From: Alphaproteobacteria bacterium | Lineage (GTDB): Bacteria; Pseudomonadota; Alphaproteobacteria; GCA-2731375 | Assembly: GCA_965232515.1 (NCBI GenBank) | Contig: CBDDPY010000002.1 | Span: 5,344,001-5,408,000, forward strand | DNA: 64,000 nt | Reading direction: 5' to 3' | Program-made: the position numbers and the translations under genes | Part shown: in pieces, positions 3,109-59,980 of the stretch | Layout of the letters: each line of letters starts with the position of its first letter | How positions within the stretch are numbered: the stretch's first letter is position 1 | The notes under the pieces: generated by a model | The model's input: only the letters and a program-made list of their open reading frames with translations | The model's database searches: none | What the model was told of the DNA's origin: nothing

Positions 3109-3222
3109 TACCGTGTTCCACCACTCGCAGTGGATGTCGTATACAATCGCGCGATGAGTGACAAGCGGGGCAACGGGGCCGGGCCGCAAAACCGGCCCCG
3201 AGCAAAACTGTGGAGGCAGAGT

Positions 3223-4173: not shown

Positions 4174-4208
4174 GGGTGCAGCGGCACCCCGCGAAACCCA
4201 GCCCTTTC

Positions 4209-4291
4209 GTCATTGCCGGGCTTGACCCGGCAATCCAGGACTGCGGCCTCCAATGGGCGCCCTGGATGCCCGGATCAAGTCCGGGCATGAC
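4209..4291. repeat. Inverted pair of REP-like palindromes (family A)
   Basis: gtcattgccgggcttgacccggcaatccag (4209-4238) and ctggatgcccggatcaagtccgggcatgac (4262-4291). Confidence 0.85.
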
Positions 4292-4334
4292 GATGTGGGC
4301 TGGATGTCCAGCGGCCATCTAGGCCACCCCGCGC

Positions 4335-6269
4335 ATGACCCTCGCCGACCGCCACCCATCCGGACCGGCGCCGTCCGGCCCGCTCGCCCGCGTGGCCGAG
4401 CCGGGCATGGCGGGGCTGCTGACGCTGCTCACGATCTTCTGGGCGTCCGGGCTGCCGCTGTGGATCGGCGTGCGGGTCTATGCCGAGCAGATCCTGATCT
4501 CGGTGCTTTGCCTGGCGATGGCGCTCTGCTTCCTTGCCCGCCCGGCCAATCGGGGCGCCGGGCGGCCCAGCGTGCCCTGGTACGACAAGGCGCTCGCCGG
4601 CATCGCCATCCTGTTCGGCATCTACCTCACCTGGCGTTTCCCGGTCCTGGCCGACGAGGTGTTCTACCGCCCGGTTGAGGCCATGATCGTCTCCGCCGTC
4701 GGCCTCGTCCTGCTGCTTGAAGCGCTGCGCCGCGGCGTCGGCTACAGCCTGATCGTCGTGCTCGGTCTGGTCTGTCTCTACGCGCTGTTCTCGGATCAGC
4801 TCGAGGGACCGCTGCAAAGCCGCGCCGTATCGCCCAAGCGCCTGCTCACGTTCATGGTGCTCGACAGCGCGGCATTGGCCGGCGCGGCGCTCTATATCGC
4901 CGTCGCCGTGGTGCTGCCCTTCGTTCTGCTGGCGAAGCTGCTGCTGGCGACCGGCGGCTCGGCGTTCTTCTCCGACGTCTCCTCGGCGCTGCTCGGCCGT
5001 TCGCGCGGCGGTTCGGCCAAGATCGCCATCGTCGCCTCCGGCCTGTTCGGCTCGATCTCCGGCAGCGCCGTCTCCAACGTCGCCTCGACCGGCGGTATCA
5101 CCATCCCGCTGATGAAGCAGGGCGGCTACCGCGCCAGGACGGCGGCGGCCATCGAGGCCGCGGCGTCGACCGGCGGCCAGTTGATGCCGCCGATCATGGG
5201 CGCGGCCGCGTTCCTGCTGGCCGAGAACCTGCAGGTGCCCTATCGCGAGGTCATCCTCGCCGCCCTGATCCCGGCCATTCTCTACTATCTCAGTCTGTTC
5301 CTGTTCGCCGATCTGGAAGCGGCGCGCTCGGGCATCGCGCCGGTCGACGCCGAGCGGATCCCGCCGCTCGGCCGCACGCTGGCCCGCGGCTGGTTCATTC
5401 TGCTGCCCTTCGCGATCCTGATCGTCAGCCTGTTCCAGTTCGGCCTGCCGCCGGAAACCGCGGCGCTGATCGCCGCCGCCTCGCTGGCCATCGTGTCGCT
5501 ATTTCGCACCTATGGCGGCGACCGCCTGCGCCCCGCCGACTATGTGCAGGTGCTGGTCGATACCGGCCGCTCGGCCATCGACATCGTCTTGATCTGTGCC
5601 GTCGCCGGCATCGTCATCGGCCTGTTCTCGCTGTCGGGTCTCAGCTTCGGCCTGTCGTTTTTCCTGGTGCTGCTGGGCAAGACCAGCCTTTGGCTGCTGC
5701 TGGCCGTGACGGCCGTGGTTTGTATCCTGCTCGGCATGGGCATGCCGACGGTCGGCGTCTATCTGCTGCTGTCGACGCTCGCCGCGCCGCCGCTGATCGA
5801 GCTCGGCCTGCTGCCGATGGCTGCGCATCTGTTCGTGCTCTATTTCGGCATGATGTCGATGATCACGCCGCCGGTCGCCATCGCCGCCTTCGTCGCCGCC
5901 AACATGGCCCAGGCCGAGCCCATGCGCACGGGCGTCGAGGCCGTGCGCGTCGCCTGGCCGGCTTACGTGGTGCCGTTCCTGTTCGCCACGGCGCCGGCCC
6001 TGATCCTGGCCGACGACTGGATCCATGTGGTGATCGCCGCCGGCACGGCCGGGCTTGGCGTCTATGCCGTCACCATGGCCATCGTCGGCTATGCCGCGGC
6101 GGCGCTCGGGCCGATGGCGCGCGCCGGGTTCGCCGTGGCCGGCATCGCCCTGCTGCTGCCGCACTCGCTGTTCGACGGCGCCGCCATCGTCACCGCCGCC
6201 GGCTTGGCCGCCGCCGCGGCGCTCTGGTTGCACGCGCGCAGCCGCGCGGCCGTGTCGCGCTCGGCCTGA
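4335..6269 (+). CDS. TRAP transporter fused 4TM/12TM permease
   Basis: GSISGSAVSNVASTG, ASTGGQLMPPIMGAAAF, GMGMPT, MITPPVA; follows the TAXI receptor. Confidence 0.93.
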   Translation: MTLADRHPSGPAPSGPLARVAEPGMAGLLTLLTIFWASGLPLWIGVRVYAEQILISVLCLAMALCFLARPANRGAGRPSVPWYDKALAGIAILFGIYLTWRFPVLADEVFYRPVEAMIVSAVGLVLLLEALRRGVGYSLIVVLGLVCLYALFSDQLEGPLQSRAVSPKRLLTFMVLDSAALAGAALYIAVAVVLPFVLLAKLLLATGGSAFFSDVSSALLGRSRGGSAKIAIVASGLFGSISGSAVSNVASTGGITIPLMKQGGYRARTAAAIEAAASTGGQLMPPIMGAAAFLLAENLQVPYREVILAALIPAILYYLSLFLFADLEAARSGIAPVDAERIPPLGRTLARGWFILLPFAILIVSLFQFGLPPETAALIAAASLAIVSLFRTYGGDRLRPADYVQVLVDTGRSAIDIVLICAVAGIVIGLFSLSGLSFGLSFFLVLLGKTSLWLLLAVTAVVCILLGMGMPTVGVYLLLSTLAAPPLIELGLLPMAAHLFVLYFGMMSMITPPVAIAAFVAANMAQAEPMRTGVEAVRVAWPAYVVPFLFATAPALILADDWIHVVIAAGTAGLGVYAVTMAIVGYAAAALGPMARAGFAVAGIALLLPHSLFDGAAIVTAAGLAAAAALWLHARSRAAVSRSA

Positions 6270-15412: not shown

Positions 15413-16285
15413 ATGTCGAGCCGCGGTCACCGGCTTTCGTTTACGCGCTCGCGCACGCTGCTCGGTGTCGGCCTGATGGTCTTCGCCATGCTGATCGTGC
15501 CGCTGGCCGACGGCCTGGCGAAGTATCTGAGCGCGTCCCATTCGCCCGTCTTCCTCAGTTGGGCGCGCTATGCCGCCGGCACGGTGTTCGTGCTGCCGGT
15601 TCTGATCTTCGCGCGCGGCGGTCTGCGCCTGACGCCGGCGCAACTACCGTCCCAGATCCTCCGCACCGTATTCCTGGCCGCCGCCATGACGCTTTACTTC
15701 ATGGCCATTGCCCGGGTGCCGCTCGCCGACGCGCTCGGCGCCTATTTCGTCGCGCCCATCGTCGCCACCGTTCTGGCCGTGCTGGTGCTGCGCGAGCGGC
15801 TGACGCGGCGCAAGGCCGTCGCCGTCGGCCTCGGCTTCGTCGGCGCGCTGCTGGTGGTCCGGCCAAGCGGGGTAATGGATGTCGGCATGGCCTACGCGCT
15901 TGCCGCCGGCCTACTGATGGCGGGTTATCTCGTCGCCACGCGCATGGCGGCGACGACAAGCTCGCCCTTCGTGACGCTGCTCATCCAGTATCTGCTGGGC
16001 ACGCTGCTGCTCACGCCGTTCGCGGTCGTTGCTTGGCGGACGCCGGCGGCCGAGGCGCTGTGGCTGATCCTCGGCATGGGTCTTTTCTCGGCGGTCAGCC
16101 ACCTGGCCTCGATCTACGCCTTTCGCTTCGCCCAGGCCTCGACGCTATCGCCGCTCGTCTATGTCGAGCTGATCTCGGCGACGATCTTCGGCTTCTTGGT
16201 GTTCGGCGATTTCCCGTCCGTGCTGACCTGGGCCGGCATCGCCGTCATTGTGCTCGGCGGTCTCAGCCTGATCGAACGGCGCTAA
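15413..16285 (+). CDS. DMT (EamA) family transporter
   Basis: DGLAKYL, WARY, LVVRP, ASTLSPLVY, FGDFP. Confidence 0.88.
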   Translation: MSSRGHRLSFTRSRTLLGVGLMVFAMLIVPLADGLAKYLSASHSPVFLSWARYAAGTVFVLPVLIFARGGLRLTPAQLPSQILRTVFLAAAMTLYFMAIARVPLADALGAYFVAPIVATVLAVLVLRERLTRRKAVAVGLGFVGALLVVRPSGVMDVGMAYALAAGLLMAGYLVATRMAATTSSPFVTLLIQYLLGTLLLTPFAVVAWRTPAAEALWLILGMGLFSAVSHLASIYAFRFAQASTLSPLVYVELISATIFGFLVFGDFPSVLTWAGIAVIVLGGLSLIERR

Positions 16286-16857
16286 CTGGCGCCGCCGTCG
16301 CTCTCGAGCGCGGCGCCCGTGCGCGCGACGCAGTCCGGGCAGATGCCGTGCGAGATCCGCGGCGTTAAGGGCCCGGCGAACAGGCCCAGCTGACGCACGG
16401 CGACATCGACCTCGACCCAGCCGCGCTCCGGCAGCTCGATCCGGTTGCACCACGAGCAGGCCTTGACGATCTCGTCCGAGCGCGGGGCGGCCGGATCCAG
16501 CAGCGCCACATACGCGCCGGCATGTTCGCGCACGATGGCGGTGTTGATCTCCAGGCCATGGCCGTCGGCCGACCGCACCGACATCTCGAGATCGCGTCGG
16601 ATCCGCGGGCTGTTGCAACGGAACGGCAGCACCGCCTCGGCTTCGCGCGCGCGAACACGATTGAAGATCATGCGTGACAAGGCGACGGTCTCCTGATCGG
16701 CGATGAACCCCCACAGCGACCGACCCAGAACGGCGTCCGGCGTCAGATGCGGCGCGCCGTTGCGCCGCGCGAAGGCCAGCCAATTGTCGCTTACCGCGAC
16801 GATGCGGTCGGCGGCATCGATCCGATACCGCAGCACCGCGCCGTTCCGGTCGGTCAT
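16282..16857 (-). CDS. PAS-like domain protein with C-terminal CxxC...CxxC motif
   Basis: IDAADRIVAVSDNWLAFA (PAS-like), CSWC and SHGICPDC. Confidence 0.6.
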   Translation of the reverse strand: MTDRNGAVLRYRIDAADRIVAVSDNWLAFARRNGAPHLTPDAVLGRSLWGFIADQETVALSRMIFNRVRAREAEAVLPFRCNSPRIRRDLEMSVRSADGHGLEINTAIVREHAGAYVALLDPAAPRSDEIVKACSWCNRIELPERGWVEVDVAVRQLGLFAGPLTPRISHGICPDCVARTGAALESDGGAS

Positions 16858-16902
16858 GCCGCGCATCGTCCGTCGATGTTCGGGCAACCGCGTTGATGTC
16901 GC

Positions 16903-17427
16903 TCAATTACCGCCGACGCGGGCCAGTCGGTCGAGGTCATCCCAAGCCATGCGGATGCCTTCGATCAGCCGGCCGCCGACCGGTTTGCGCGTGCGCGCCG
17001 CCGCGCGGCCGTTCAGGCGTTCATAGAAACGCACCGCGCCGCTGTTCTCGGCGAAGACCCAGAGGGCGGCGCTATGGAACCCCAGTTGCGGCAACCGCCG
17101 CGCGGCCTCCGCCAATAGTCGCTGGCCGATTCCGCCGCCACGGCGGTCGGGATCGACATGCAAATTGTCGATGTAACCGGTGTTGGGATCGTCCGCGTCG
17201 GGCCAAACCGCGATGAAGCCGATGATGGCGTCCTGCTGCTCGGCGACGAGGATCAGGCCGTCCGAATGGTCCCGCGCGAACACGCCACGCCAGTGGTCCG
17301 CCGTCTCCTCCGCCAGCGCGCCGTCCATGTAAGCGTCGTCGACGATGCCGCGATAGGCGCTGCGCCAGCTCCTGACATGCAGATCGGCAATCGCCGCCGC
17401 ATCGGTCACGTTTGCGTCACGTATCAC
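16903..17427 (-). CDS. GNAT family N-acetyltransferase
   Basis: LHVDPDRRGGGIG, LWVFAENSGAVRFYE. Confidence 0.92.
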   Translation of the reverse strand: MIRDANVTDAAAIADLHVRSWRSAYRGIVDDAYMDGALAEETADHWRGVFARDHSDGLILVAEQQDAIIGFIAVWPDADDPNTGYIDNLHVDPDRRGGGIGQRLLAEAARRLPQLGFHSAALWVFAENSGAVRFYERLNGRAAARTRKPVGGRLIEGIRMAWDDLDRLARVGGN

Positions 17428-17531
17428 CTGTTACTCCGTACTGCCGACAACACTGATGAGGCAGCTACGGAACCTAGTGGGGACCCGGCGTCCTGGTCGA
17501 GCGGTTTTTGCCGGCGGCCGCTGCCCTTAGC

Positions 17532-18686
17532 TCACCATTGGTTGTCCATGGGGAACTTGAGCACCCCATAGGGCGGCGATTTCGGCCGCTCGACGATGAT
17601 CTCCGTACCCGACAGGCTGTCCAGGAAGGCGACGACGTCGTCGATCTCGGCGTCCGTCAGGCCGAGCGGCTTGATCTTGTCGGACTTGGTGCCGAACGGC
17701 TCGTCCTCGCCGCCCTTGTTGTAGAATTCGACCACCTCGTGCAGGTCGAAGAACACGCCGTTGTGCATATAGGGCACGGTATAGGCGAGGTAGCGCAGCG
17801 GCGGCGTGCGGAACTTGCCGATGTCGGCGATGTCCTTGGTCGCGCGGAAACGGCCCGGATCGCGGTCGAGATGCAGGTAGGCCGCTTCCTCGTGCCCGGA
17901 CGAGCGCATGCGTTCGCGGAACGCGATCTGGCGCTGGGCATTTTCGGTGAAGGCGGGATTGGTGGGCAGGCCGATATTGTGGAAGTCCTGATCGGTCAGC
18001 AACGGTCCGCCATGGCAGGCGATGCAGCCGGCCTTGCCCTCGAACAGCGCTTTGCCGCGCAGCGCCGCTTCCGACATGGCGTCCGCCTCGCCGCGCATAT
18101 GGCGGTCGAACGGGCTGTCGTCCGAGATGACGGTGCGCTCATACGCCGCGATCGAGGCCAGCGCCTGGTCATAGTTCGGCGCGGCGTCCCAGACCTCCCG
18201 GAACAGGCGGACATATTCCGGGACCTGCTTCATGCGCTCCTCGGCCAGCACCTTCTTCAGGTTGCCGGCGAGCGCGCCCGAGATCGCCGAATGCGCCTGC
18301 GCCTCCATCGTCGACGCCGACGAGGTCCAGAACCAACCCTTGGTCAGATAGCCCGAGTTCACCACGGTCTGCGAGTTGCGCCAGTGCATGGTGCCGGGAT
18401 AGCCGCGGCCGAGGTCGTTGCCGTCACCCCAGCCGAGCTTCGGATCATGGCAGTCGACGCAACCGATCGACCCGTCGCCCGAGAGACGCGCGTCGAAGAA
18501 CAGGTGCTTGCCAAGGGCTATGTTCGCCTCGGTCATCGGGTTGTCCACGGGGATGGGCATGGGCGGCAGTGCGGCCAGCGGTTCGGGGCCCGCGTTGTCG
18601 GCGGCGGCGAACCGGGTGACGGCCAGCGCCGCCAGCGCGGCGAGCGCGATCGCGCCGAACAGGCTGTTGCGAAGACGTCGGGTCAT
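17532..18686 (-). CDS. Diheme cytochrome c peroxidase / MauG family protein (IdrP-like)
   Basis: Signal peptide, LGKHLFFDARLS, CVDCH, CIACH, FRTPPLR, PYMHNG. Confidence 0.92.
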   Translation of the reverse strand: MTRRLRNSLFGAIALAALAALAVTRFAAADNAGPEPLAALPPMPIPVDNPMTEANIALGKHLFFDARLSGDGSIGCVDCHDPKLGWGDGNDLGRGYPGTMHWRNSQTVVNSGYLTKGWFWTSSASTMEAQAHSAISGALAGNLKKVLAEERMKQVPEYVRLFREVWDAAPNYDQALASIAAYERTVISDDSPFDRHMRGEADAMSEAALRGKALFEGKAGCIACHGGPLLTDQDFHNIGLPTNPAFTENAQRQIAFRERMRSSGHEEAAYLHLDRDPGRFRATKDIADIGKFRTPPLRYLAYTVPYMHNGVFFDLHEVVEFYNKGGEDEPFGTKSDKIKPLGLTDAEIDDVVAFLDSLSGTEIIVERPKSPPYGVLKFPMDNQW

Positions 18687-18697
18687 GGGCGCGCTCC

Positions 18698-19459
18698 TCA
18701 CGCTTTCATGTCGAGGGACAGCTCGTGGGTCTCGCCGGCGGCGAACGTGACCTCGCGCGTGACTTCGCCGAGCAGCGGATGCCACATCACGAGCTCGTAG
18801 CTGCCGGGCGGTATGTCGCCGATATCGAAGCGGCCGTCGGCGCCCGTTGCGGCGAGATAGGGGTGGCTGGCGGTGTAGATCCAGGCCGACATCCAGTTAT
18901 GGGCGTCGCAGTCGATCTCGACCACCGTGCCCCGGCGCATCTTGAGGGTCGCCACGTCGGTCTGCCCCGCCGCCGGTTGCGCGATGTTGAACATCGTGCG
19001 CCGGGCCCGGCCGATCTGCTCGTAGGCGTGGATGTTGTGCAGCAGCGGATCGTGATTGACGACCGTGAGATCGGCGCCCTTCGCCGCGACCTGCACGAAC
19101 GGCTGGAACAGACAGGCCTTCTGATCGATCTTCGGCGTGGTCATGCCCGCGTCCCAGGGCTTGCCGGCGGCGACCTCGCGCAGGCCGACGACGCCGTCTT
19201 TCAGCGCGCCGTCATCCGTCACAGTCAGCGGATTCGGATTGACGTCGCCGACGCCGCATATGTGGGAGTCCTTCGAGATCAGCACGGCGTCCTCGGCCGG
19301 CGGCTCGCCCGTAAAGCGCAGGACGCCCGTGAGACGCGCGCCATCTTTCACGTCGGCTTCGGTATAGGCATTGCCGAGGCGCGGCAATCCAACGGCGCCG
19401 AGGGCGACAACAGCACCGCCGGCGAGGATCGCCCGGCGCCGGGTAAACGACTTGATCAC
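18698..19459 (-). CDS. Tat-exported protein with carboxypeptidase-regulatory-like and cupredoxin-like domains
   Basis: TRRRAIL Tat signal, HNIH...CDAHNWM, GRFDIGDIPPGSY; GTG start overlaps the upstream stop. Confidence 0.7.
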   Translation of the reverse strand: MIKSFTRRRAILAGGAVVALGAVGLPRLGNAYTEADVKDGARLTGVLRFTGEPPAEDAVLISKDSHICGVGDVNPNPLTVTDDGALKDGVVGLREVAAGKPWDAGMTTPKIDQKACLFQPFVQVAAKGADLTVVNHDPLLHNIHAYEQIGRARRTMFNIAQPAAGQTDVATLKMRRGTVVEIDCDAHNWMSAWIYTASHPYLAATGADGRFDIGDIPPGSYELVMWHPLLGEVTREVTFAAGETHELSLDMKA

Positions 19460-20211
19460 TGCTTTTCCTCCTGCGAAGCATCCGCTTCGGTTCTGAGCGA
19501 CAAGAGATATTCGGTCAGCGCCCACAACTCGTCGTGGGAGGCCCGTCCCGCGTAGGACGGCATCGGTGAGCCGTCGAGCCCGGTATAGAAGCGCGTCCAG
19601 ATTTCTTCCGGGGAATCGCCGCCCTTGTAGCTGCCGCTCACCAGGCTGGCGGCGAAGGTGCGGCGCCGGTCGTCGCCCTTCATCGTCAACGAGGAGGGGC
19701 CGTCGCCATGGCCCGTTTCGCCGTGGCAGGCGGCGCACTGCAGTCGCTCATAGACCTCACGGCCGAGCGCGATGTCGGCGGTTTCCGGCCGCGGCGGCAC
19801 CGTGACCGGCGTGCCTTCCACATCCATCCAGGCAAACGTGCGCACGACCTCGACCAGCGCCCAGCGATCCTTCTCCGACAGGGCCGCGAAGCTTGGCATC
19901 TGCGCGCCGTTCGAGCCGGCAAGGCCGTGCGTGATCGTGTCGAACAGGTCCCGCGCGGTCGGGAACTGGCCGGTCGGCGTCGAGCGGATCTTGAACACGC
20001 CGAGCGTCAGGTTGCGCGGCCGCTGGGCCAGATACATGGCGCCGGGTCCGTTGCCGTCGCCCTCGACGCCGTGACAGACGGCGCACTCCCGGGCATAGAG
20101 CTCCTGGCCGTGCGCCAGCAGGTCCGGATCGGGCGCGGTATATTGCGCCGCCGCCGGTCCGGCGAGCGCCGCCAAGGCGGCGCCAACCAACAGAATGGAT
20201 GCACGCTTCAT
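19456..20211 (-). CDS. Diheme cytochrome c
   Basis: Signal peptide, CAVCH and CAACH, each followed by an MPS distal-ligand motif. Confidence 0.9.
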   Translation of the reverse strand: MKRASILLVGAALAALAGPAAAQYTAPDPDLLAHGQELYARECAVCHGVEGDGNGPGAMYLAQRPRNLTLGVFKIRSTPTGQFPTARDLFDTITHGLAGSNGAQMPSFAALSEKDRWALVEVVRTFAWMDVEGTPVTVPPRPETADIALGREVYERLQCAACHGETGHGDGPSSLTMKGDDRRRTFAASLVSGSYKGGDSPEEIWTRFYTGLDGSPMPSYAGRASHDELWALTEYLLSLRTEADASQEEKQ

Positions 20212-20224
20212 GGCGGGCCTCCCG

Positions 20225-22837
20225 TCAACCGATGCTGCGTGGAATGAAGGACATGGCGGCATCGACGCTCTTCAGCGGCGTCTCGCCGGCCTTCTCGACC
20301 CGGCCCTTGCCAATCTTGTAGTTGTAGACGGCCGACACCGGATCGGTGACGGCCGAGACGACGGTGTTCGAGTTCTGGCCGGGATAGAACGCATAGGTGT
20401 AGGTGACGCCCGGCGCCACTTCGTCGGTCGGATAGGCGACCAGCGACAGCACGCCCTTGCTCGTGCGCCCGAGCTGGTCGACCACGGCGTCGTTAGTGAC
20501 GTGCACCAGGTCGCCGGCCTCAATCCCGCGGGCCTCGGCGTCGGCGTGGTTGATGAACAGCCAGTTCATCGGCCAGCGCTCGCGGATATAGGGCTTGCGC
20601 AGGTCGTCGTACATGGTCTGCCAGATGTGGTTGATCCGGCCGTTCATGACCCAGAGCTCGTCGCCCCGGGGTTTGAACTTCTCGAAGATCGGCTCGGCGA
20701 TGCGCCAGTCGCCGCGCATGAAGATCGCCCTGCCCGACTTCGTCTTGTACTTGGTGACGTTCCAGTTGTGGTTTTCGGGATCGGTGATCGTCTTGTCGTG
20801 CAGCCGGATCGTGCCGACCAGCTTGCCGTCGACCAGGCGGGCCGGAAGCTGGATGCCCGTGGTCGACAGCGCGCGCAGCTGCTCGTGGGCGGAGAGCCCA
20901 TTGGCGCGGGCGAACGCGATCAGCTTGGTATAGTCGTAATGGCCGCCCTTCGACCGCGCGGCGGCCTCTTCGAAGACTTCGTTGCCGTCCCGCCAGGCAA
21001 AGCCCTCGTAACCCATCTTGGTGGCGATCTGACCGACGATCCACCAGTCCGGCTTCGCGGAGCCGGGCGGATCGTAGAACTTGGAATAGATCCGCAGTCG
21101 CCGCTCGCCCTGCGCCCGGGTCAGGTCGGTCTCGCCCCAGGTGGCGGCCGGCAGGACCAGGTCGACATATTCGGTCAGGTCGTTCGGATAGATCTCCTGC
21201 ACCGCCAGCGCCATGCCGCCGGCATCCATCCGCGCCTTCAGCCGGGCGATGATCTCGTCGCGGTCCAGGCTGTCGACCTGGATCTCATGGCCGCGCGTCA
21301 GACCGTGGATCTTCTCCCGCAACGCCTGGCCCGAGGCCATCGACGTCACCCAGGTATGGCCGATGACATGGCAATAGCGGAGATTGCCTTCCATGGCGTG
21401 CCGGTCGAAATGTAGCGGCAGCTTCTCGCCGGTTTTCTCGCCGGTGATCGGATCGACGAAGACGTCGGTCGACTTCTTTATCGGATAGCCGGCGCCTTTC
21501 ATCATGCCGCGTTGATGGCCGCCGAGACGGCCCAGGATGCGGCCCGGCCGGCCCGAGGCGCCGTTGATCAGCGCCAGCGCCGAATACGAGCTGGTGTTGG
21601 GGAAATTGAACGACCAGTAATTGCCCTTCTCGAGAAAGAACGACGCCTTCGGCCGCAGCTTGCCGCGCGGCTTCGCCAGCATCTCCGCCGCCAGCTTCAG
21701 CTTCCCGGCCGGCACGCCGGTAATCCCGGCGGCCTTTTCCAGCGTGTAGGCGTCGTCCGCCAGGACGAACGCCTTGTAGTCCGCGAACGGGCCGCCATAG
21801 CGCTTGCGGCGCCACGAGGTCTCCTTCGCCATGTCGTCCTCGGACACCGTGTATTCGGCGATGAATTCGCGGTCCTCCCAGCCCTGTTCCAGGATGTAGC
21901 GGGCGATGGCGTTGTTCAAAACGCTGTCGGTGCCGGGCGTCAGCTGCAGGTGCAGGCCGCCCGAGCGCTTGGCATAGGCCGCCGTCGGGCTCTTGCGCGG
22001 ATTGACCTGGATGATCTTCGCGCCGCCCGGCGCCATCCATTCGGTGAACAGGATGGTGTGGTTCTCATACGGGTCCGAGCCCGAGATCATGATGACGTCG
22101 GCATCCGTCACGTCCGGATAGCCGTATGAGAAGCCGTCGACGCCCGCGTCATCGACGCCGGTGGCGTCGTTTGCCGCGGTGTTCTTGTCGTGCTCGGCGC
22201 CGGCCGGCGTGCCGATGGCGCCGTAGGCCCATTTGGTCAGGGCGTAGGTGTTCTCCCAGAACTGGTACGAGTAGTACTTGATGCCCCAGGCCTGCTCGCC
22301 CCAGGTGTCGATGGCGTAGCGGCCGAGCTCGGCCGCGATCGTCGTCGCGTCCTCCCAGGAAATCGCGTGCAGCATGCCGCGCGACCGGACCATCGGCGTT
22401 TGCAGGCGTTCGGCCGTCGGGCGTTTCGGGTTGTAGGGCTTGAGGCCGAGCGTGCCGCCCCGGACCGAGTGGTTGCCCTTGCGGTTCACCGCCGTTTCGC
22501 CGTCCGGCACGATGACGACGTGGTGCGGCTCGCCCTTGTACTGCACGATATTGTGCATGTTCGGGCTGATCCACTTGCCCGACAGCGGCCCCGTCGGGAA
22601 CTGTTCTTTGAAAGCATTTTCGTCCGGTTTCGCGCCGCCCTCGGCGTGATACGGCCAGCGGTAGACCTTGTAGGCGCAGCCGACGATGCAGTACTCGCAG
22701 GCCGTCGGCAGGACGTCGGCATTCGCCGGCGGGACCGGCACCTCGTCCACGGGCACGTCGTAGGTGCCGGTGTCGAGCGACGGCGTTCGCGCCGCCAGCA
22801 GGAACTCGCGGCGTGATTTGTCGGAGCGGTCGGTCAT
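20225..22837 (-). CDS. Molybdopterin oxidoreductase large subunit, AioA/IdrA-like (divergent)
   Basis: CEYCIVGCAY (Cx2Cx3C) with distal Ser in HSVRGG, ENT, EKG, RLGGHQ, LVLPAATWGE, KPDW, NGRINHIWQT; 870 aa. Confidence 0.88.
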   Translation of the reverse strand: MTDRSDKSRREFLLAARTPSLDTGTYDVPVDEVPVPPANADVLPTACEYCIVGCAYKVYRWPYHAEGGAKPDENAFKEQFPTGPLSGKWISPNMHNIVQYKGEPHHVVIVPDGETAVNRKGNHSVRGGTLGLKPYNPKRPTAERLQTPMVRSRGMLHAISWEDATTIAAELGRYAIDTWGEQAWGIKYYSYQFWENTYALTKWAYGAIGTPAGAEHDKNTAANDATGVDDAGVDGFSYGYPDVTDADVIMISGSDPYENHTILFTEWMAPGGAKIIQVNPRKSPTAAYAKRSGGLHLQLTPGTDSVLNNAIARYILEQGWEDREFIAEYTVSEDDMAKETSWRRKRYGGPFADYKAFVLADDAYTLEKAAGITGVPAGKLKLAAEMLAKPRGKLRPKASFFLEKGNYWSFNFPNTSSYSALALINGASGRPGRILGRLGGHQRGMMKGAGYPIKKSTDVFVDPITGEKTGEKLPLHFDRHAMEGNLRYCHVIGHTWVTSMASGQALREKIHGLTRGHEIQVDSLDRDEIIARLKARMDAGGMALAVQEIYPNDLTEYVDLVLPAATWGETDLTRAQGERRLRIYSKFYDPPGSAKPDWWIVGQIATKMGYEGFAWRDGNEVFEEAAARSKGGHYDYTKLIAFARANGLSAHEQLRALSTTGIQLPARLVDGKLVGTIRLHDKTITDPENHNWNVTKYKTKSGRAIFMRGDWRIAEPIFEKFKPRGDELWVMNGRINHIWQTMYDDLRKPYIRERWPMNWLFINHADAEARGIEAGDLVHVTNDAVVDQLGRTSKGVLSLVAYPTDEVAPGVTYTYAFYPGQNSNTVVSAVTDPVSAVYNYKIGKGRVEKAGETPLKSVDAAMSFIPRSIG

Positions 22838-22848
22838 TGTCGCCTCCC

Positions 22849-23445
22849 TCAACCGCGCATCAGCCGCCGGCCTGCGCCGGCCGGCTCCCGAGCGCCGTCG
22901 GCGAAGGCGCCGCCTTCCAGATTGTTGCGCTGGCCGTAGATCAGCCCGATCACGCCGATCGCGACGATGTCGTCGCCGTCCAGCCGCAGGACGATCTGGG
23001 GCAGGTTCTGCGTCGCCTGGGCATGGACGGGAATGCCGCCCTTGGTCAGATCGAAGACCGAGAAGTGCATCGGACACGGCCCCAGTGCCTTGGTGTCGTG
23101 CCGATAGCGCCCGCGCAGCGGACCGCCCATATGCGGACAGAGCGTCGAATAGGCGACGATGTCGCGAGCGGGGCCGACGCCACGGCGCGCCTCCGTGCCC
23201 AGCTTCACCAACAGGTTCGGCTGCTGCTTCAGGGGATAGGCGAAGGCGACCGGCTCGCCCTCGGCCAGCTCGGAAGCTTTCGCGATACGCAGCTCGGGAT
23301 AAATATCTCGGCTGAGGTCGGCCGCGCCGGTGGCCGCCTCGACGATATCGGCCGGCGCGAATGTCGTCGCCAGGGCGCCGCCGGCCACGCCTTTCAATGC
23401 CAGCCTGCGGCCGAAGCAGTAGTCCGATTTCGATTGGTCCGTCAT
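22849..23445 (-). CDS. Rieske [2Fe-2S] small subunit, AioB/IdrB-like, Tat signal
   Basis: GRRLALKG Tat motif, GVGPARDIVAYS, CPHMG, CPMHFSVFD, QATQNLPQ. Confidence 0.92.
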   Translation of the reverse strand: MTDQSKSDYCFGRRLALKGVAGGALATTFAPADIVEAATGAADLSRDIYPELRIAKASELAEGEPVAFAYPLKQQPNLLVKLGTEARRGVGPARDIVAYSTLCPHMGGPLRGRYRHDTKALGPCPMHFSVFDLTKGGIPVHAQATQNLPQIVLRLDGDDIVAIGVIGLIYGQRNNLEGGAFADGAREPAGAGRRLMRG

Positions 23446-23540
23446 GACGCATCCCTCGTTCGTTTGGGTGCCGGTTCGGGGTCGTCGTCCGTTCCGCGCG
23501 CCCGCGATTGCTTCGGCCGAAGGGCCCTGATGCTGCCTAG

Positions 23541-23565
23541 AACGGCGCCTTATCGGGATGGGTTC
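23541..23565 (-). promoter_or_regulatory. Putative ECF sigma promoter for the oxidoreductase operon
   Basis: Minus strand GAAC-ccatcccgataaggcgc(17)-CGTT, about 95 nt upstream of the Rieske start. Confidence 0.6.
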
Positions 23566-23604
23566 GTGACTTTTGTTAACCATGTTCGCCGGCAACGAAG
23601 TCGT

Positions 23605-23629
23605 GAACTCATCGCCGGTCGGGCGCGTT
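23605..23629 (+). promoter_or_regulatory. Putative ECF autoregulatory promoter
   Basis: GAAC-tcatcgccggtcgggcg(17)-CGTT, about 98 nt upstream of the sigma gene. Confidence 0.6.
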
Positions 23630-23726
23630 ATATGTTGCTGGAAACCGTTTCCCGACCGTCGCGCCCACCGGCTGAATCCGGCGTTTTTGGCGCGGCGGTT
23701 TCGTGCGCTGAAAGACGTTTTCGCCA

Positions 23727-24344
23727 ATGCTGGGTTTCACCGAGGCACGCCGCCGAAAGAAGTTCGAAGCGATGACGAAACCGCATCTCGATGCCCTTTA
23801 CCGGACCGCCCGGCGCATGACCGGTCACGCGCAGACGGCCGAGGACGTGGTGCAGGAAACCTGCCTGAAGGCCTATCGCGGTCTCGACGGATTTCAGGCC
23901 GGCACCAATTACGGCGCCTGGTTGTTCCGCATCCTGACCAACACTTGCATCGACTGGCGGCGGCGTCGCGGTATCGGCGAGACCGTCGACCTGCACGCGC
24001 TGCCCGACGCCATGCTGGGCGGCGATGTCGGCTCGGCGACGCAGGACCGGCGCGAGCCCGATCCCGAGGCGCACCTGATGGTGGCGGAGTTCCGCCGCGA
24101 CGTCATGGGCGCCATCGACCGCTTGTCGCCGGAGTTGCGGATGGTCGTGCTGCTGGCCGTGTTCGAGGAGTACAGCTACGCCGAGATCGCCGAGGCCGTC
24201 GATTGCCCGATCGGCACCGTGCGCTCGCGGCTGAACCGCGGCCGCCAGCAACTGCAGGCCGAGCTTTCGGCCTATCGTACCGTCGAGTTGGTCCCGGTAT
24301 CGCCCGACCGGGCGGCCAGGGGCGGAGGCTGTGGCGAGCCATGA
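23727..24344 (+). CDS. ECF sigma-70 factor
   Basis: AEDVVQET, AWLFRILTN, SYAEIAEAVDCPIGTVRSRLNRGR. Confidence 0.95.
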   Translation: MLGFTEARRRKKFEAMTKPHLDALYRTARRMTGHAQTAEDVVQETCLKAYRGLDGFQAGTNYGAWLFRILTNTCIDWRRRRGIGETVDLHALPDAMLGGDVGSATQDRREPDPEAHLMVAEFRRDVMGAIDRLSPELRMVVLLAVFEEYSYAEIAEAVDCPIGTVRSRLNRGRQQLQAELSAYRTVELVPVSPDRAARGGGCGEP

Positions 24345-25288
24345 GCAAGATGACCTGCGAGCAGGTGCGGCAGCGCCTTTTCGACTACCTCGACGGCATC
24401 GGCGAAGCCGGCGAACGCACCGCGATCGCCGCGCATCTCGACGGTTGTCCGGCCTGCACCGCCGAGCTGCGCGCGACCGGCGGGATGGAGAAACGCATGC
24501 GACAGGCACTCGCCGGCGACCGCGCGCCGGACGGCCTTTGGGACCGGGTGATGGCGTCCATCGACGCGGACGACGGGGCCAAGCCGCGCGGCTGGCGCAC
24601 CGGCTGGCCGGCGATGGCCGTGGCGGCGGCGGTCGCCGCCCTGCTGATCGCCGTCGTCGGCCTGATCTCGCTGCCGGGGCAGCAGACGGTGCAGCCGACG
24701 GCGCTGGTGGTCGAGCCGGTGAACGACTTCATCACCTATCGCCTGAGCGGCCGGCCGCTCGACGTCGAAAGCGCCGATCCGGCGGCGCTGGCGCAATGGT
24801 TCAGCGGCAAGACCGAGGCCGGCGTGCCGCGCGATATCCCGGCCCCGGCCGGCTTCCGGCTGGTCGGCAGCCGCCTCTGCTATTTCCTCAACCGCCGGCT
24901 TGCGGCTCTGATGTATCAGTCCGAGGCCGGCTTGCTGTCGCTCTACGTCATGTCCGACCACGACATCGTCATGCCGGAAGCGCGCTTCGACGCCGCCGTC
25001 GGCCGTGCGCTGTCGAGCCATCGCGTCAACGACCACAACAGCCTGATCTGGCGCAACGACGGCCGGGTCTACGTGCTGGTCTCCGACCTGCCCAAACCCG
25101 ACATGCGCCGCTTTCTCGAAGGCATGCAGGCGGCGATGCGGGACGCGCCGGCGGGTTATCCCCGGGTCATGACGACGATGGTGGTCAGCACGACCGGCGT
25201 CAGCGCCAGCGCCGGGATGATCAATCCGGCGAAGCCGAAGCAGGCGGCGGCGAAAATCCACCCCATCACGCCGTTGGCGATGAAATAG
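24341..25288 (+). CDS. Zinc-binding transmembrane anti-sigma factor
   Basis: HLDGCPAC (Hx3Cx2C), single TM, periplasmic domain; ATGA overlap with the sigma gene. Confidence 0.9.
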   Translation: MSKMTCEQVRQRLFDYLDGIGEAGERTAIAAHLDGCPACTAELRATGGMEKRMRQALAGDRAPDGLWDRVMASIDADDGAKPRGWRTGWPAMAVAAAVAALLIAVVGLISLPGQQTVQPTALVVEPVNDFITYRLSGRPLDVESADPAALAQWFSGKTEAGVPRDIPAPAGFRLVGSRLCYFLNRRLAALMYQSEAGLLSLYVMSDHDIVMPEARFDAAVGRALSSHRVNDHNSLIWRNDGRVYVLVSDLPKPDMRRFLEGMQAAMRDAPAGYPRVMTTMVVSTTGVSASAGMINPAKPKQAAAKIHPITPLAMK

Positions 25289-25410
25289 TACTTCGCGTCC
25301 GGCGGACCGAGCAGGGCGTCGCGGAGGAACCAGCCCAGCACTGGGATCCGGCACAGCCATAAAATGGCCGCCGGCGGCCGTGCGCGATCCTCCGCCACGT
25401 CCGCCGCCAT
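25156..25410 (-). CDS. Small hypothetical membrane protein
   Basis: 84 aa hydrophobic ORF (RIPVLGWFLRDAL) directly after the PCuAC stop; overlaps the anti-sigma 3' end. Confidence 0.6.
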   Translation of the reverse strand: MAADVAEDRARPPAAILWLCRIPVLGWFLRDALLGPPDAKYYFIANGVMGWIFAAACFGFAGLIIPALALTPVVLTTIVVMTRG

Positions 25411-25411
25411 G

Positions 25412-25936
25412 TCAGTTGGTCTTGTGCTTACCGTGCGACATGCCGTGCCCGGAATGGTCCATCTTACCGCCGCCCGAACCGCGCGCGCCGACCGGCTCGA
25501 CGTCGAACTCGAGATCGATCGATCCCGCTTTCTCGAAGGTCAGCGTCGCGGTCACCGGATCGCCTTCGACCAGCGGCGCTTTCAGCTGCATGAACATCAC
25601 GTGATAGCTGCCGGGCTTCAGCTCGACGGTCTCGCCGGGCGGAATCTCCAGGCCGGCGGGCAGGCGGCGCATGCGCATCACGCCGTCTTTCATGGCCATC
25701 TCGTGGATCTCGATCTTGCCGGCGAAATCGGCCGCGCCGGCGACCAGCCGGTCGGTCTCGCTGCCCATGTTCTTGATGGTCATGTAGCCGCCCCCGACCT
25801 TGGCGCCGCCGGGCGTCGCCCGCGTCCAGGGATGATCGATCGCCAGCGAACCGATCTTGTAGTCGTGCGCCATCGCGGTCGTGACAAACGCCGAGAGGCT
25901 AAGGGTCAAAGCGGTAAGGATGCGGATATAGGTCAT
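25412..25936 (-). CDS. Periplasmic copper chaperone PCu(A)C
   Basis: HPWTRAT, EIHEM..MRM, LKPGSYHVMF, His/Met-rich tail. Confidence 0.95.
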   Translation of the reverse strand: MTYIRILTALTLSLSAFVTTAMAHDYKIGSLAIDHPWTRATPGGAKVGGGYMTIKNMGSETDRLVAGAADFAGKIEIHEMAMKDGVMRMRRLPAGLEIPPGETVELKPGSYHVMFMQLKAPLVEGDPVTATLTFEKAGSIDLEFDVEPVGARGSGGGKMDHSGHGMSHGKHKTN

Positions 25937-26002
25937 TGCTCACTCCAATCGTCTGATCGACAGGCCAGGGCCGTCCGCGTCGGCCGCGGCGGCGTCGTCT
26001 TG

Positions 26003-27157: not shown

Positions 27158-27165
<8 letters not shown>

Positions 27166-27904
27166 GACCGCTCTCCGGCGCCCGCATGCGCTCGGCCGCG
27201 CCATGGCCCAGATAGGCCTCGATCACCCGCGGGTCGGCGGCGATCTCGGCCGGCGCGCCCTCGGCGATCAGTACGCCGTCGTTCAGCACATAGGTGTAGT
27301 CCGACAGGTTCATCACCGCCTGCATGACATGTTCGATCAGGAAGATGGTGATGCCGCCGGCGCGGATGTCCTTGATCAGCGCGACGATGTCGTCGATCTC
27401 GGTCGGGTTCAGTCCGGCCATGACCTCGTCCAGCAGCAGCAGTTGCGGCTCGGTGGCGAGCGCCCGGGCCAGCTCCAGCCGCTTGCGGCCGGCGACCGTC
27501 AGGCCGTCGGCCGGCTGCTCGGCCTGCGCCGCCATGCCGACGCGGTCCAGCACGGCGCGGGCGCGGTCTGCCGCCTCGCGCCGGTCCGCCGTGCGGTGAT
27601 AGGCGCCGACCATGACATTCTCCAGCGTCGTCAGGCCGGCGAACGGCTGGGTGATCTGGAACGTGCGCACCATGCCGCGGGCGCAGATCCGGTGCGGCTT
27701 CAGGCCGACGATGTCCTGGTCCTGGAAGCGCACGCTGCCCGCGTCCGGTGTCAGGAAGCCGGCGACCATGGCGAATAGCGTCGTTTTGCCGGCGCCGTTC
27801 GGCCCGATCAGCGAGACGATCCGGCCCGCGTCCACGTTGAGGTCGACATTGCTGACGGCGGCAAGACCGCCGAAGGATTTCGACAGGCCGCGAACGTCAA
27901 GCAT
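27158..27904 (-). CDS. livG: Branched-chain amino acid-type ABC ATPase
   Basis: GPNGAGKT, RTFQ, LLLDE, VIEAYLG. Confidence 0.93.
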
Positions 27905-28859
27905 CCTCGGCCTCTTTCGGCCGCGGCCGGCCCTTGAACAGGCCGATCAGGCCGTTCGGCAGATAGCCGATGATGATGATCAGGATGATGCCGTAGACGA
28001 TCAGGCTCAGGCCCGGCGTCTCGATATAGTGCCGCGTCACCTCGTTGACGCCGTGCAGCACGAACGCGCCGATCAGCGGACCGAACACCGTGCCCATGCC
28101 GCCGACGATCGTCACCAGCAGCATCTCCACCGAGGTCGCCACGCCATAGGCGATGGGCGGATCTATATAGAGGAACTTCTGGGCATAGAAGGTGCCGCCG
28201 ACGCCGCCCATGGCGCCCGAGATCATGATCGCGTACATCTTGCAGCGGAAGGCGTTCACGCCCAGGGCTTCGGCCGCGTCCTCGTTCTCGCGGATGGCTT
28301 TCAGATAGGCGCCGAAGCGCGAGCGTTCGAGCCACCATGCGATGGCGAGCGAGATGACCGTCAGCGCCAGGGCGATGTAGTAGTAGCCGGCCGGGTCCTG
28401 GAACTGCAGGCGTGCCAGGCTGGGCTCGTTCTCGATGAAGATGCCGATGCCGCCGCCGGTGAACTCGACCGAGTTGGCCAACACCTTGAAGACTTCCGCG
28501 AACGCCAACGTGATCAGCGCGAAGTAAGACCCACGCAGACCGTATCTGAAGCTGAGAAAACCGACGAAGGCGCCGACCGCGGCGCCGGCGAACAGCGCCG
28601 CGATCATGCCGATCCAGGCGTCGATGCCGAAGGTCATCAGCAGGATCGACGAGGTATAGGCGCCGGTGCCGAAGAACACGACGCTGCCGAACGAGAACTG
28701 CCCGGCATAGCCGCCCAGGATGTTCCAGGACTGGCCCAGGAAGGCGCTTAACAGGATCAGCGTCAGGACGTCGATCACGAAGCGGTCGGCGATCAGCAGC
28801 GGCGCCGCCAGCGCCAGCAGGGCGAGCGCCAGGAGGAACAGGAGGCTGCGCACCGGCAC
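27897..28859 (-). CDS. livM: Branched-chain amino acid-type ABC permease
   Basis: WNILGGYAGQFSFG, YFALITLAF, AIRENEDAA. Confidence 0.92.
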   Translation of the reverse strand: MPVRSLLFLLALALLALAAPLLIADRFVIDVLTLILLSAFLGQSWNILGGYAGQFSFGSVVFFGTGAYTSSILLMTFGIDAWIGMIAALFAGAAVGAFVGFLSFRYGLRGSYFALITLAFAEVFKVLANSVEFTGGGIGIFIENEPSLARLQFQDPAGYYYIALALTVISLAIAWWLERSRFGAYLKAIRENEDAAEALGVNAFRCKMYAIMISGAMGGVGGTFYAQKFLYIDPPIAYGVATSVEMLLVTIVGGMGTVFGPLIGAFVLHGVNEVTRHYIETPGLSLIVYGIILIIIIGYLPNGLIGLFKGRPRPKEAEDA

Positions 28860-59960: not shown

Positions 59961-59980
59961 CCTGGCCTGCGCCAGGATGA
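58970..59980 (+). CDS. IS30 family transposase
   Basis: STVSRELKRN, WSPEQ, GHWEAD, TFDNGTEF, PWQKGGIEN, PRKCLDY. Confidence 0.96.
   Translation: MGSDYAQLSLEERCEISRLQTAGRSIRQIAAALDRAPSTVSRELKRNSGRQVGYKPAYAQQQARARRWSGPRLQRDPSLRDRVLDGLKRGWSPEQVAGRLAHTAGQHVISHESIYRFVYAQLARTQDFRWRLLLPRGKSKRGWRGRRGGSPASFIAGRVPIADRPADVDDRTTPGHWEADLMLFATYGQAILVCHERLSRILLATRPPGKAAQPIADHLHALFADLPPDLRQTVTFDNGTEFARHTELQHIDMQTYFCDPHAPWQKGGIENAIGRFRRFIPRKTNLDELNRRRLHQYLRAYNTTPRKCLDYRTPAEVFIEHLLHFECESTSWPAPG

Follow-up and report, generated by a model that had tools for sequence, protein, structure and literature searches.

Does a molybdoenzyme that is annotated as an arsenite oxidase and is nearest in sequence to iodate reductase belong with either, or does it form a group with a reaction of its own? 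The question is raised by a unit of seven genes within a stretch of 64,000 nucleotides from an alphaproteobacterial genome (GTDB lineage GCA-2731375; assembly GCA_965232515.1, contig CBDDPY010000002.1, positions 5,344,001 to 5,408,000), here called the window, in whose numbering coordinates are given. Five genes on the minus strand (17532-23445) encode a Rieske small subunit, a molybdenum (Mo) large subunit, a dihaem cytochrome c, a copper protein and a di-haem peroxidase; a pair of genes on the plus strand (23727-25288), divergent from these across a gap of 281 bp, encodes an extracytoplasmic function (ECF) sigma factor and its membrane anti-sigma. An earlier note, made from the letters of this DNA, had proposed here a distinct periplasmic redox system like arsenite oxidase (AioBA) or iodate reductase (Idr) and under ECF control. 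All seven genes are present where that note placed them, as open reading frame (ORF) reading and domain searches agree, and since the gene order recurs in nine other genomes the unit is no chance pattern. The large subunit is a third, uncharacterised paralogue of the arsenite-oxidase/iodate-reductase group, sister to the IdrA clade. New here are its link to an ECF sigma factor, its co-occurrence with Idr and Aio, and a set of residues specific to its clade. No paper on this clade or on ECF control of an Idr-like enzyme was found in the literature, in which the supplements of PMC13455634 (Table S2) and PMC8692401 could list members.

Family and phylogenetic placement of the large subunit

The large subunit (20225-22837, minus strand, 870 aa) has the motif C47-x2-C50-x3-C54 with Ser124 at the fourth-ligand position, matches the Pfam models Rieske_3 '3Fe-4S' (PF18465, 115 bits), Molybdopterin and Molydop_binding, and scores 428.9 bits on TIGR02693 (cut-off 359.05). 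Its partner, a Rieske [2Fe-2S] subunit of AioB/IdrB type (22849-23445, minus strand, 198 aa) with a twin-arginine GRRLALK signal and cluster motifs CPH at 103 and CPMH at 124, matches the Pfam Rieske model and scores 136.5 bits on TIGR02694 (cut-off 95.65). TIGR02693 cannot tell Idr and Aio apart, as NCBI gives the Azonexus IdrA the same name, and solved AioA chains in the PDB are matched over residues 30-856 with 283 bits only. By tblastn the large subunit is 43.9% identical to that in the idrP2P1BA array on a plasmid of Azonexus hydrophilus NCP973, against 28.0% to AioA of Sinorhizobium M14 and 29.8% to AioA of Thermus HB8; among plasmid records the AioA-annotated genes are 28-31% identical and three records, NCP973 included, 40-44%. 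The NCP973 locus is a ccp-ccp-small-large array (ccp, cytochrome c peroxidase), and the strain is one of five isolated iodate respirers carrying idrABP1P2 according to the available text of PMC13455634; the control locus of Sinorhizobium M14 reads aioX-aioS-aioR-aioB-aioA-cytC. Kinship with both groups, as the earlier note had it, thus stands, but not in equal measure: the enzyme is far nearer Idr (44%) than Aio (28-30%), and its second coordination sphere is Idr-like.

A search of 5.8 billion proteins gave 565 matches at E<=1e-20, the best 120 of which were considered, and among cluster representatives 131 matched at E<=1e-30. Trees were built from 107 matches of 780-1000 aa, 17 full-length representatives picked from 150, and the translated genes of the loci described below, with the broken or partial L012, L019 and L024 left out. 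The window protein falls in all three trees within a monophyletic group, clade D, that has 100% support: FastTree with 163 rows (51 of them in clade D, stem 0.31), IQ-TREE under LG+C20 with 54 rows (stem 0.31) and FastTree with 65 rows (stem 0.28). The sister of clade D is in each case clade C, the Idr type, with support of 93, 89 and 91, respectively. Clade C has 100% support without clade D and contains every locus with two upstream peroxidases as well as the Azonexus NCP973 enzyme, the one proven iodate reductase in the trees; Sedimenticola, Vibrio and NC10 of clade C are also named in the IdrA clade in the text of Reyes-Umana et al. (PMC8692401). Clades B (Chloroflexota, Myxococcota) and A (archaea and others) branch below C plus D, and the canonical AioA clade (Sinorhizobium M14, Thermus HB8, Hydrogenophaga) lies far outside and excludes the window protein in each of the three trees. 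Forcing clade D together with the core Idr rows, a group that was named after the tree had been seen, costs 179.7 log-likelihood units and is rejected by the approximately unbiased (AU) test at p-AU 2e-96 (23 rows, LG+G4). The large subunit therefore nests in neither AioA nor IdrA, and the earlier note's proposal of a distinct system is supported in this respect.

The 51 clade-D rows are 58-100% identical to the window protein and come from marine Alphaproteobacteria, from metagenome-assembled genomes (MAGs) of groundwater Proteobacteria, and from one gammaproteobacterial MAG. Clades A and B probably correspond to the 'unknown clade' between AioA and IdrA (Halorubrum, Dehalococcoidia) of Reyes-Umana et al. 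2021 (PMC8692401), as matched by the verbal description in that paper rather than by its figures. Clade D resembles the 'unknown clade' in being a relative of IdrA outside the idrABP1P2 clade, and differs from it in that the text of the same paper describes the latter without peroxidases nearby.

The cluster-representative matches also include about 20 long fused AioA/IdrA-like proteins, in which large subunits of 1400-2100 aa carry C-terminal fusions to unrelated oxidoreductase domains, as in P0132, P0144, P0149, P0153 and P0169. The fused part is a flavin amine oxidase in P0132, a planctomycete cytochrome c plus glucose/sorbosone dehydrogenase in P0144, and a LodA-type lysine epsilon-oxidase in P0153 and P0169; the C-terminal part of P0149 is without a Pfam match.

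Gene order and distribution

The five minus-strand genes are spaced by -4 (a 4-base overlap) to 13 bases, on a gene map drawn from domain searches and start-site reading in the DNA with refined starts. Twenty-one loci came from a scan in which each species was represented by a single genome, and conservation was counted over ten clade-D loci, the window included. The dihaem cytochrome and the copper protein are present in all ten, the Rieske subunit in 9/10, the peroxidase in 8/10, and an adjacent ECF and anti-sigma pair likewise in 8/10; the genes downstream of the large subunit are thus syntenic in relatives. The earlier note had called the order aio-type, and the order itself is as described, but it has no discriminating value, the same B-then-A order being found in idr. 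The count of one peroxidase was correct: its gene (17532-18686, minus strand) lies downstream of the copper protein, while the peroxidase genes of the alphaproteobacterial Idr loci lie upstream of the Rieske-Mo genes in 8/8 and are two in 7/8 (the contig of L059 ends within the first), and 16 Idr-type loci altogether have two peroxidases upstream.

The clade is patchily distributed, as is Idr. A clade-D gene was found in none of 400 other Alphaproteobacteria sampled evenly, nor in any of three genomes of the window's own family; in the same 400 genomes 14 places match at the level of the Idr type (45-49%) and nine at that of the Aio type (30-35%). In the window's genome this large subunit is the only Aio/Idr-like gene. 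At least one named carrier of clade D, Pelagibius sp. Alg239-R121, is cultured.

Some loci depart from the common plan or have further neighbours. L011 has molybdate-transporter-like genes and moaA in the place of the peroxidase. In L012 (G409:C40:15272-19530, a Rhodospirillales MAG) the large-subunit gene, 81-82% identical to that of the window, is in four pieces with TAG and TAA stops, and is either a pseudogene or the product of long-read errors. A nitroreductase-family gene stands just upstream of the ECF gene in L005 (4561-5181), L007 (4756-5361) and L010 (2158-2778), and in the Hydrogenophaga aio locus a nitroreductase follows cytC. The idrP2P1BA arrays L061 (1679-8971) and L063 (1378-8096), and also L056 (4036-7961 and 13932-16214), adjoin an oxidase-like module composed of a 'bd-like' oxidase subunit with a weak Cyt_bd_oxida_I match, several c-type cytochromes, one protein with an EB_dh haem domain, another with HEAT repeats, and a homologue of the copper protein; L056 has in addition an FGE-sulfatase-like gene.

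Compared with AioAB of Alcaligenes faecalis and Pseudorhizobium banfieldiae NT-26 (PDB 1g8k, 4aay), the window enzyme shares the fold and the cofactor set, the [3Fe-4S] motif with its Ser and the Tat (twin-arginine translocation) Rieske subunit, the lack of a usual Cys, Ser or Sec ligand motif, and the placing of a c-type cytochrome gene after that of the large subunit, and both of its subunits pass the NCBIfam equivalog cut-offs. Unlike Aio, the unit has a peroxidase, a copper protein and an ECF pair, and no aioXSR, moeA or ars neighbours were found. With IdrABP1P2 of Pseudomonas sp. SCT, Denitromonas iodatirespirans IR-12 and Azonexus hydrophilus NCP973 it has in common a periplasmic heterodimer of Rieske and Mo/[3Fe-4S] subunits with the Tat signal on the small subunit; it differs in forming a clade of its own at 44% identity, in having one peroxidase downstream rather than two upstream, and in that the dihaem cytochrome c and the blue-copper protein always lie inside the clade-D unit.

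Active site of the large subunit

Eight conserved second-sphere residues are given for the NT-26 Aio in the text of PMC10448176 (Asp169, His199, Arg201, Glu207, Lys413, Arg447, His451 and Glu453), and these were mapped onto the window protein through PDB-match and family alignments. Four are kept in all clade-D rows: His199 as His216, Lys413 as Lys404, Arg447 as Arg437 and His451 as His441. The other four are changed in 51/51 rows, with Asp169 replaced by Ser190, Arg201 by Lys218, Glu207 by Asp224 and Glu453 by Arg443. The same four replacements are found, by position, in 32-38 of the 39 clade-C rows, whereas AioA rows keep D, R, E and E (7/7). Clade B has all four as well; clade A has three, its Arg201 position holding Ala (8/9) or Ser (1/9). 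To judge from these alignments, an Idr-type second sphere appears to be a necessary and not a sufficient mark of membership among iodate reductases. The loss of both acidic residues at the funnel entrance, one of them to Arg, would favour an anionic substrate, IO3- for example, over the uncharged As(OH)3.

Nineteen positions set clade D apart, each with a residue that does not vary in the clade and is rarely found outside it; three of the nineteen lie in active-site segments. In addition, every clade-D large subunit compared has at its N-terminus a stretch RR-x-[FLM]-L-x-A-A-R-[TS]-P-S-x-D, which has no hydrophobic core; in the window protein this twin-arginine-like stretch, of the form RR-x-F-L-L-A-A-R-T-P-S-x-D, lies within residues 1-25, SRREFLLAARTPSLD, also without a hydrophobic region. 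The clade-C, clade-A and Aio rows compared are without it, and the clade-B protein P0064 has a full Tat signal on its large subunit. NarG has a vestigial Tat signal that binds a chaperone, and by analogy the RR stretch of clade D could be a vestigial Tat signal of this kind.

Cytochrome, copper protein and peroxidase

The dihaem cytochrome c (19456-20211, minus strand, 251 aa), a periplasmic protein with a Sec-type signal and haem motifs CAVCH at 43 and CAACH at 159, matches Cytochrome_CBB3 (78.6 bits) and Cytochrom_C (76.2 bits) and is the presumed redox partner of the Mo enzyme. Its stop codon is overlapped by the GTG start of the copper protein (18698-19459, minus strand, 253 aa), which has a Tat-type TRRRAIL signal and matches no curated Pfam cupredoxin model. 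An AlphaFold2 model (mean pLDDT 92.3) divides the copper protein into three domains: a beta domain at the N-terminus, the cupredoxin domain in the centre and, at the C-terminus, a CarboxypepD_reg-like sandwich. The top Foldseek matches of the model are cupredoxins (5fc9, E 2.7e-5, TMt 0.72), its central domain matching pseudoazurin, amicyanin and plastocyanin, and the predicted type-1 ligands H141, C184, H187 and M190 are invariant in 48 sequences. By the modelled fold and the His, Cys, His, Met set taken together the protein is a predicted blue-copper cupredoxin. It shares the cupredoxin fold and the His...Cys-x2-His-x2-Met ligand set with the small cupredoxins (pseudoazurin, amicyanin, azurin), and is unlike them in its length, its two extra beta-sandwich domains and its small family, which numbers 114 proteins at E<=1e-5, all unnamed or called 'carboxypeptidase regulatory-like'. 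In the ESM Atlas, clusters that resemble it bear the automatic name 'methylamine utilization protein'.

The earlier note had given the unit an electron chain of its own. Neither the cytochrome nor the cupredoxin is confined to this unit, for homologues lie in the alphaproteobacterial idrP2P1BA loci (the cupredoxin in 5/8, the cytochrome in 4/8), and a homologue of the copper protein is found as well in a Nitrospirales locus ordered CCP-Rieske-Mo-Cupr-CCP.

The peroxidase (384 aa; PF03150, 129.6 bits) has the haem motifs CVDCH and CIACH; across 14 sequences neither its Trp between the haems, W120, nor PYMHNG varies. Of the two Azonexus peroxidases the idrB-proximal one (IdrP1) is the closer, at 50.9% identity against 37.8% for the distal one. 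Among PDB chains it matches 6e1c, a Burkholderia di-haem enzyme (141.5 bits), and 4aal (140.7 bits), classical peroxidases scoring about alike; since it falls below the cut-offs of both the MbnH and the MauG equivalogs it is filed under neither. By sequence it is classed as a di-haem peroxidase of the bCCP/MauG superfamily, nearest to the IdrP gene that adjoins idrB. Pseudoazurin is a known electron donor to the Paracoccus di-haem peroxidase.

Regulation

The ECF (group IV) sigma factor (23727-24344, plus strand) consists of sigma regions 2 and 4 only, matching Sigma70_r2 (67.6 bits), Sigma70_r4_2 (59.8 bits) and TIGR02937 (102.1 bits against a cut-off of 42.9), and its stop overlaps the start of the anti-sigma gene at 24341-24344. 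The anti-sigma (24341-25288, plus strand, 315 aa; zf-HC2, 39.9 bits) has the H32-x3-C36-x2-C39 motif and one transmembrane helix, so that the two genes have the features of a sigma and zinc anti-sigma (ZAS) pair. A comparison with 35 relatives and a predicted model give it a cytoplasmic zinc-binding domain, a single membrane helix and a conserved periplasmic alpha/beta domain, with H32, C36, C39, W153 and W237 invariant. The N-terminus matches MucA, RsiW and RslA in VIA-align 2 with Z scores of 6.2-7.1, and the periplasmic part matches TM1622 (Z 8.9), MucB (7.5) and RseB (6.8) at a moderate level; Foldseek gives no match for the periplasmic domain at E<=0.001, the best being RseB at 1.4e-3. 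A fold class of the TM1622/MucB/RseB type is plausible on this modelled structure, and allows no inference as to a ligand.

The divergent gap holds two copies of an ECF-type promoter-like motif, GAAC-N17-CGTT, one facing each gene: at 23541-23565 on the minus strand, 96 nt upstream of the Rieske start, and at 23605-23629 on the plus strand, 98 nt upstream of the ECF sigma start. GAAC-N16/17-CGTT occurs ten times in the window against 3.3 expected, a number reached in none of 100 shuffles. A relaxed form lies 86-189 nt upstream of 7/9 ECF genes of the family, a count from which matches inside upstream coding sequence (window at -293, L007 at -275, L010 at -249, L011 at -219 and -204) were kept apart. 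This relaxed form also precedes the Rieske gene in both of the loci where a separate promoter region exists, the window and L010.

The regulator pair is co-directional with the enzyme genes in the other loci and inverted in the window only; in four clade-D loci the anti-sigma gene abuts or overlaps the Rieske gene, and for L004 the pair was not found within the flanks of the locus. L010 has two consecutive ECF/anti-sigma pairs of the same family (549-2119 and 2919-4458) upstream of its enzyme genes. Neither an ECF nor an anti-sigma match was found in any of the 27 Idr- or Aio-type loci examined, and the Azonexus and Thiothrix idr arrays adjoin two-component sigma-54 genes instead. The unit is a rare case of an ECF/anti-sigma pair wired to a respiratory-type molybdoenzyme.

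Direction of electron flow and candidate substrates

On the basis of the ancestry of the enzyme, the charge pattern of its active site, and the peroxidase and electron carriers that it has in common with iodate reductase, the favoured reading is an Idr-like reductase whose substrate is iodate or a high-potential oxyanion close to it, with electrons supplied by the cytochrome and the copper protein and with the ECF pair as its switch. Its chances are put at even, an estimate that concerns direction and substrate class; the readings considered here overlap, an Idr variant of unchanged function being a special case of this one. The host context includes a point in its favour: the window's genome has NarG (2179.7 bits; no NapA above the cut-off), and all five isolated iodate respirers also carry nitrate reductase in the account available in PMC13455634.

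In such a reductase the Rieske subunit would, to judge from the signals, carry the cofactor-loaded Mo/[3Fe-4S] subunit over the membrane by way of Tat. The dihaem cytochrome c and the blue-copper protein would take electrons of the respiratory chain in the periplasm, and these would pass through the Rieske [2Fe-2S] and the [3Fe-4S] clusters to the Mo centre, at which a high-potential oxyanion may be reduced, iodate being the leading candidate and a related halogen oxyanion the second. The single IdrP1-like peroxidase, probably fed by the same copper protein, may remove a reactive by-product such as peroxide or hypohalite. The system may serve respiration, act as an electron sink or detoxify. 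The unit's own ECF sigma factor would switch it on, as the conserved pair and the paired motifs in part indicate, with the membrane zinc anti-sigma holding the sigma factor and its periplasmic domain or zinc/thiol site possibly sensing the signal. The opposite iodine reaction, oxidation of iodide to iodate, was considered as well; the Rieske and [3Fe-4S] centres of the Aio/Idr family lie far below the IO3-/I- couple, and this reaction was judged unlikely on redox grounds.

A number of observations weigh against reduction of iodate or a close relative. Clade D has an invariant Glu215 beside the catalytic His, where Idr types have mostly Pro, an invariant Thr220 at the position of the 'missing' Mo ligand, and an invariant Phe410 where Idr types have Asn, and these residues would point to changed chemistry. 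The Idr-like second sphere does not prove iodate reduction, because clades A and B share it, and the sister relation to Idr is supported at only 89-93% (SH-type). Three of the nine other clade-D genomes hold a complete ccp-ccp-Rieske-Mo array of clade C besides, and two of these three also carry an AioA-type gene, one being a Kiloniellaceae genome with all three enzymes; two of the three genomes are metagenome bins, and in the third the copies lie on contigs of 1.38 Mb and 0.24 Mb. Since Idr arrays, and AioA, co-occur with it, clade D is a third paralogue rather than a substitute, and since a second iodate reductase would be redundant in these genomes, it may have another substrate or role. 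The groundwater locus L008 (12281-17044) has CtaG/Cox11-like, COX1 and FixO-plus-dihaem-c genes of a cbb3-type oxidase after the copper protein, in the place of the peroxidase, a hint that fits electrons leaving the enzyme toward a terminal oxidase at least as well. No chlorite-dismutase-like gene or domain was found in the window's genome (completeness 96%), and no activity is known for any clade-D member. ECF sigma factors more commonly govern stress responses than respiration, and a cupredoxin, azurin, is a natural acceptor of arsenite oxidase.

The last point counts for the opposite direction, in which a reduced periplasmic substrate (a metalloid, sulfur or nitrogen species) would give electrons through the Rieske subunit to the dihaem cytochrome c and the copper protein, and thence to a sink encoded in the unit itself. 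In most loci this sink would be the di-haem peroxidase, turning H2O2 into water, and in a single locus it would be a cbb3-type oxidase; the whole would form a self-contained periplasmic chain. Direction has switched repeatedly in this enzyme superfamily, the CtaG-like, COX1 and FixO-dihaem-c genes in the peroxidase slot of L008 are what such a chain would need, and an enzyme that coexists with Idr and Aio in single genomes should do something else. The nitroreductase-family genes beside three clade-D loci and in the Hydrogenophaga aio locus have been counted on the same side, as has the fact that cytochrome c is a natural acceptor of arsenite oxidase in the text of PMC10071563. However, the closest relative of known function is a reductase, both acidic funnel residues of AioA show the replacements of Idr types, the unit holds no substrate-specific sensor or transporter, and L008 is one of ten clade-D loci. 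Idr arrays, moreover, also have peroxidases, and some adjoin oxidase modules, although Idr is a proven reductase, so that an oxidase neighbour is not diagnostic. Operation as an oxidase is considered rather unlikely.

Slightly more credence, though the proposal is doubtful as well, is given to an Idr variant that has lost IdrP2 and gained a different regulator with its substrate and role unchanged. The Idr-like second sphere, the IdrP1-like peroxidase, and a cupredoxin and cytochrome common to alphaproteobacterial idr loci all speak for it, as do the absence of any other Idr-type gene from the window's genome and the finding, in the text of PMC11445184, that aerobic marine Alphaproteobacteria carrying idr genes reduce iodate when oxygen is limiting. 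But a complete idrP2P1BA array is kept by three of the nine other carriers, the branch to the clade is long (0.28-0.31), the clade-invariant positions include those in the active-site segments, and the N-terminal twin-arginine-like extension is present in all clade-D subunits compared and absent from the Idr rows compared. A simple second Idr is disfavoured by the length of this stem, by the clade-specific residues at the catalytic His and by the coexistence with true Idr. The automatic annotation, 'arsenate reductase (azurin) large subunit', would make the enzyme a true though divergent arsenite oxidase, which is highly improbable. Both subunits exceed the equivalog cut-offs, yet Idr types would pass the same NCBIfam cut-off, as NCBI names the Azonexus IdrA alike; the catalytic His, Arg, His and Lys and the [3Fe-4S] plus Rieske architecture are kept, yet half of the eight second-sphere residues are different, the protein is 28-30% identical to AioA, and every tree puts it outside the AioA clade. 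The 'unknown clade' near IdrA does include proteins of arsenite-oxidising organisms in the available text of Reyes-Umana et al. (PMC8692401); on the other side, two carriers have a true AioA-type gene besides clade D, and aioXSR and ars genes are absent among the 50 window ORFs scanned.

The reading as a reductase of iodate or a similar oxyanion has thus to be set beside a broader one, tentatively held and falling somewhat short of an even chance, in which clade D acts on a substrate of its own, as a third enzyme alongside Idr and Aio in one cell, as in the Kiloniellaceae genome. In one form it would be a reductase of another halogen or chalcogen oxyanion or of an iodine intermediate; in another it would be an oxidase whose cytochrome and copper protein deliver electrons to the peroxidase or to the cbb3 oxidase, making a complete chain from substrate to peroxide or oxygen. 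In either form the ECF/zinc anti-sigma pair would sense the substrate or a reactive product.

Window context and RNA

The neighbours of the unit are ordinary transport and catabolic genes by Pfam scan. The earlier note's statement that aioXSR and ars genes are absent was borne out: no ars or aioXSR-type gene was found among 50 window ORFs scanned with Pfam, drawn from 51 chosen by a filter on G+C at third codon positions (GC3), the remaining one, ORF 7-315, lying outside the scan. The G+C content of the region is 65-71%, as a result of which there are many spurious ORFs, and in the GC3-filtered list three of the seven unit genes are merged or missing and three extra entries appear; the ORFs 27158-27904 and 27897-28859 lay outside the Pfam scan and were viewed as translations only. 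A PCuAC copper-chaperone gene (25412-25936, minus strand, 138.4 bits), convergent with the anti-sigma gene, was considered as a member of the unit and rejected, no homologue flanking the clade-D loci L004-L012 or the other loci searched; its position is probably incidental, and it could still serve copper loading. A GNAT gene (16903-17427) and an ORF of 201 aa (16282-16887), downstream on the same strand as the enzyme genes, were likewise rejected, as they are not conserved in relatives. No mobile-element gene adjoins the unit; an IS-type transposase gene with HTH_38 and an rve integrase core (58970-59980, plus strand) lies 34 kb away.

Assembled contigs 90-99% identical to the region 16800-26000, covering all genes at a word depth of ~1-11, are present in three RNA-seq libraries of one study (X4, X9 and X10), and some of them run across the junctions Rieske/Mo, Mo/cytochrome and cytochrome/copper/peroxidase. 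Coverage of the flanking genes is like that of the operon and DNA carry-over is possible, so that such contigs cannot show a transcript and are a weak sign of co-transcription; a poly-A run, X21, gave zero reads on the region. Of the two properties that the earlier note had tied to the downstream genes, synteny is accordingly found, and co-transcription is suggested by the small gaps, the single overlap and the bridging contigs. The libraries come from a study of another organism, and as they hold contigs of this identity a close relative of the bacterium lives with the organism of that study.

Significance

Microbial iodate reduction shapes marine iodide, and thereby ozone deposition and the fate of radio-iodine. 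Surveys of idrA count by homology, and clade D, annotated as arsenite oxidase, would be mis-scored by them either way. The pairing of a copper protein with a peroxidase bears on the role of the Idr peroxidases, which the text of PMC11445184 calls unclear. With its Idr-like, anion-friendly site, its three changed residues round the catalytic His and its coexistence with Idr and Aio, clade D is a good candidate for a new substrate specificity, and since Pelagibius sp. Alg239-R121 is in culture the question is directly testable. Each new activity in this enzyme family has opened part of an element cycle.

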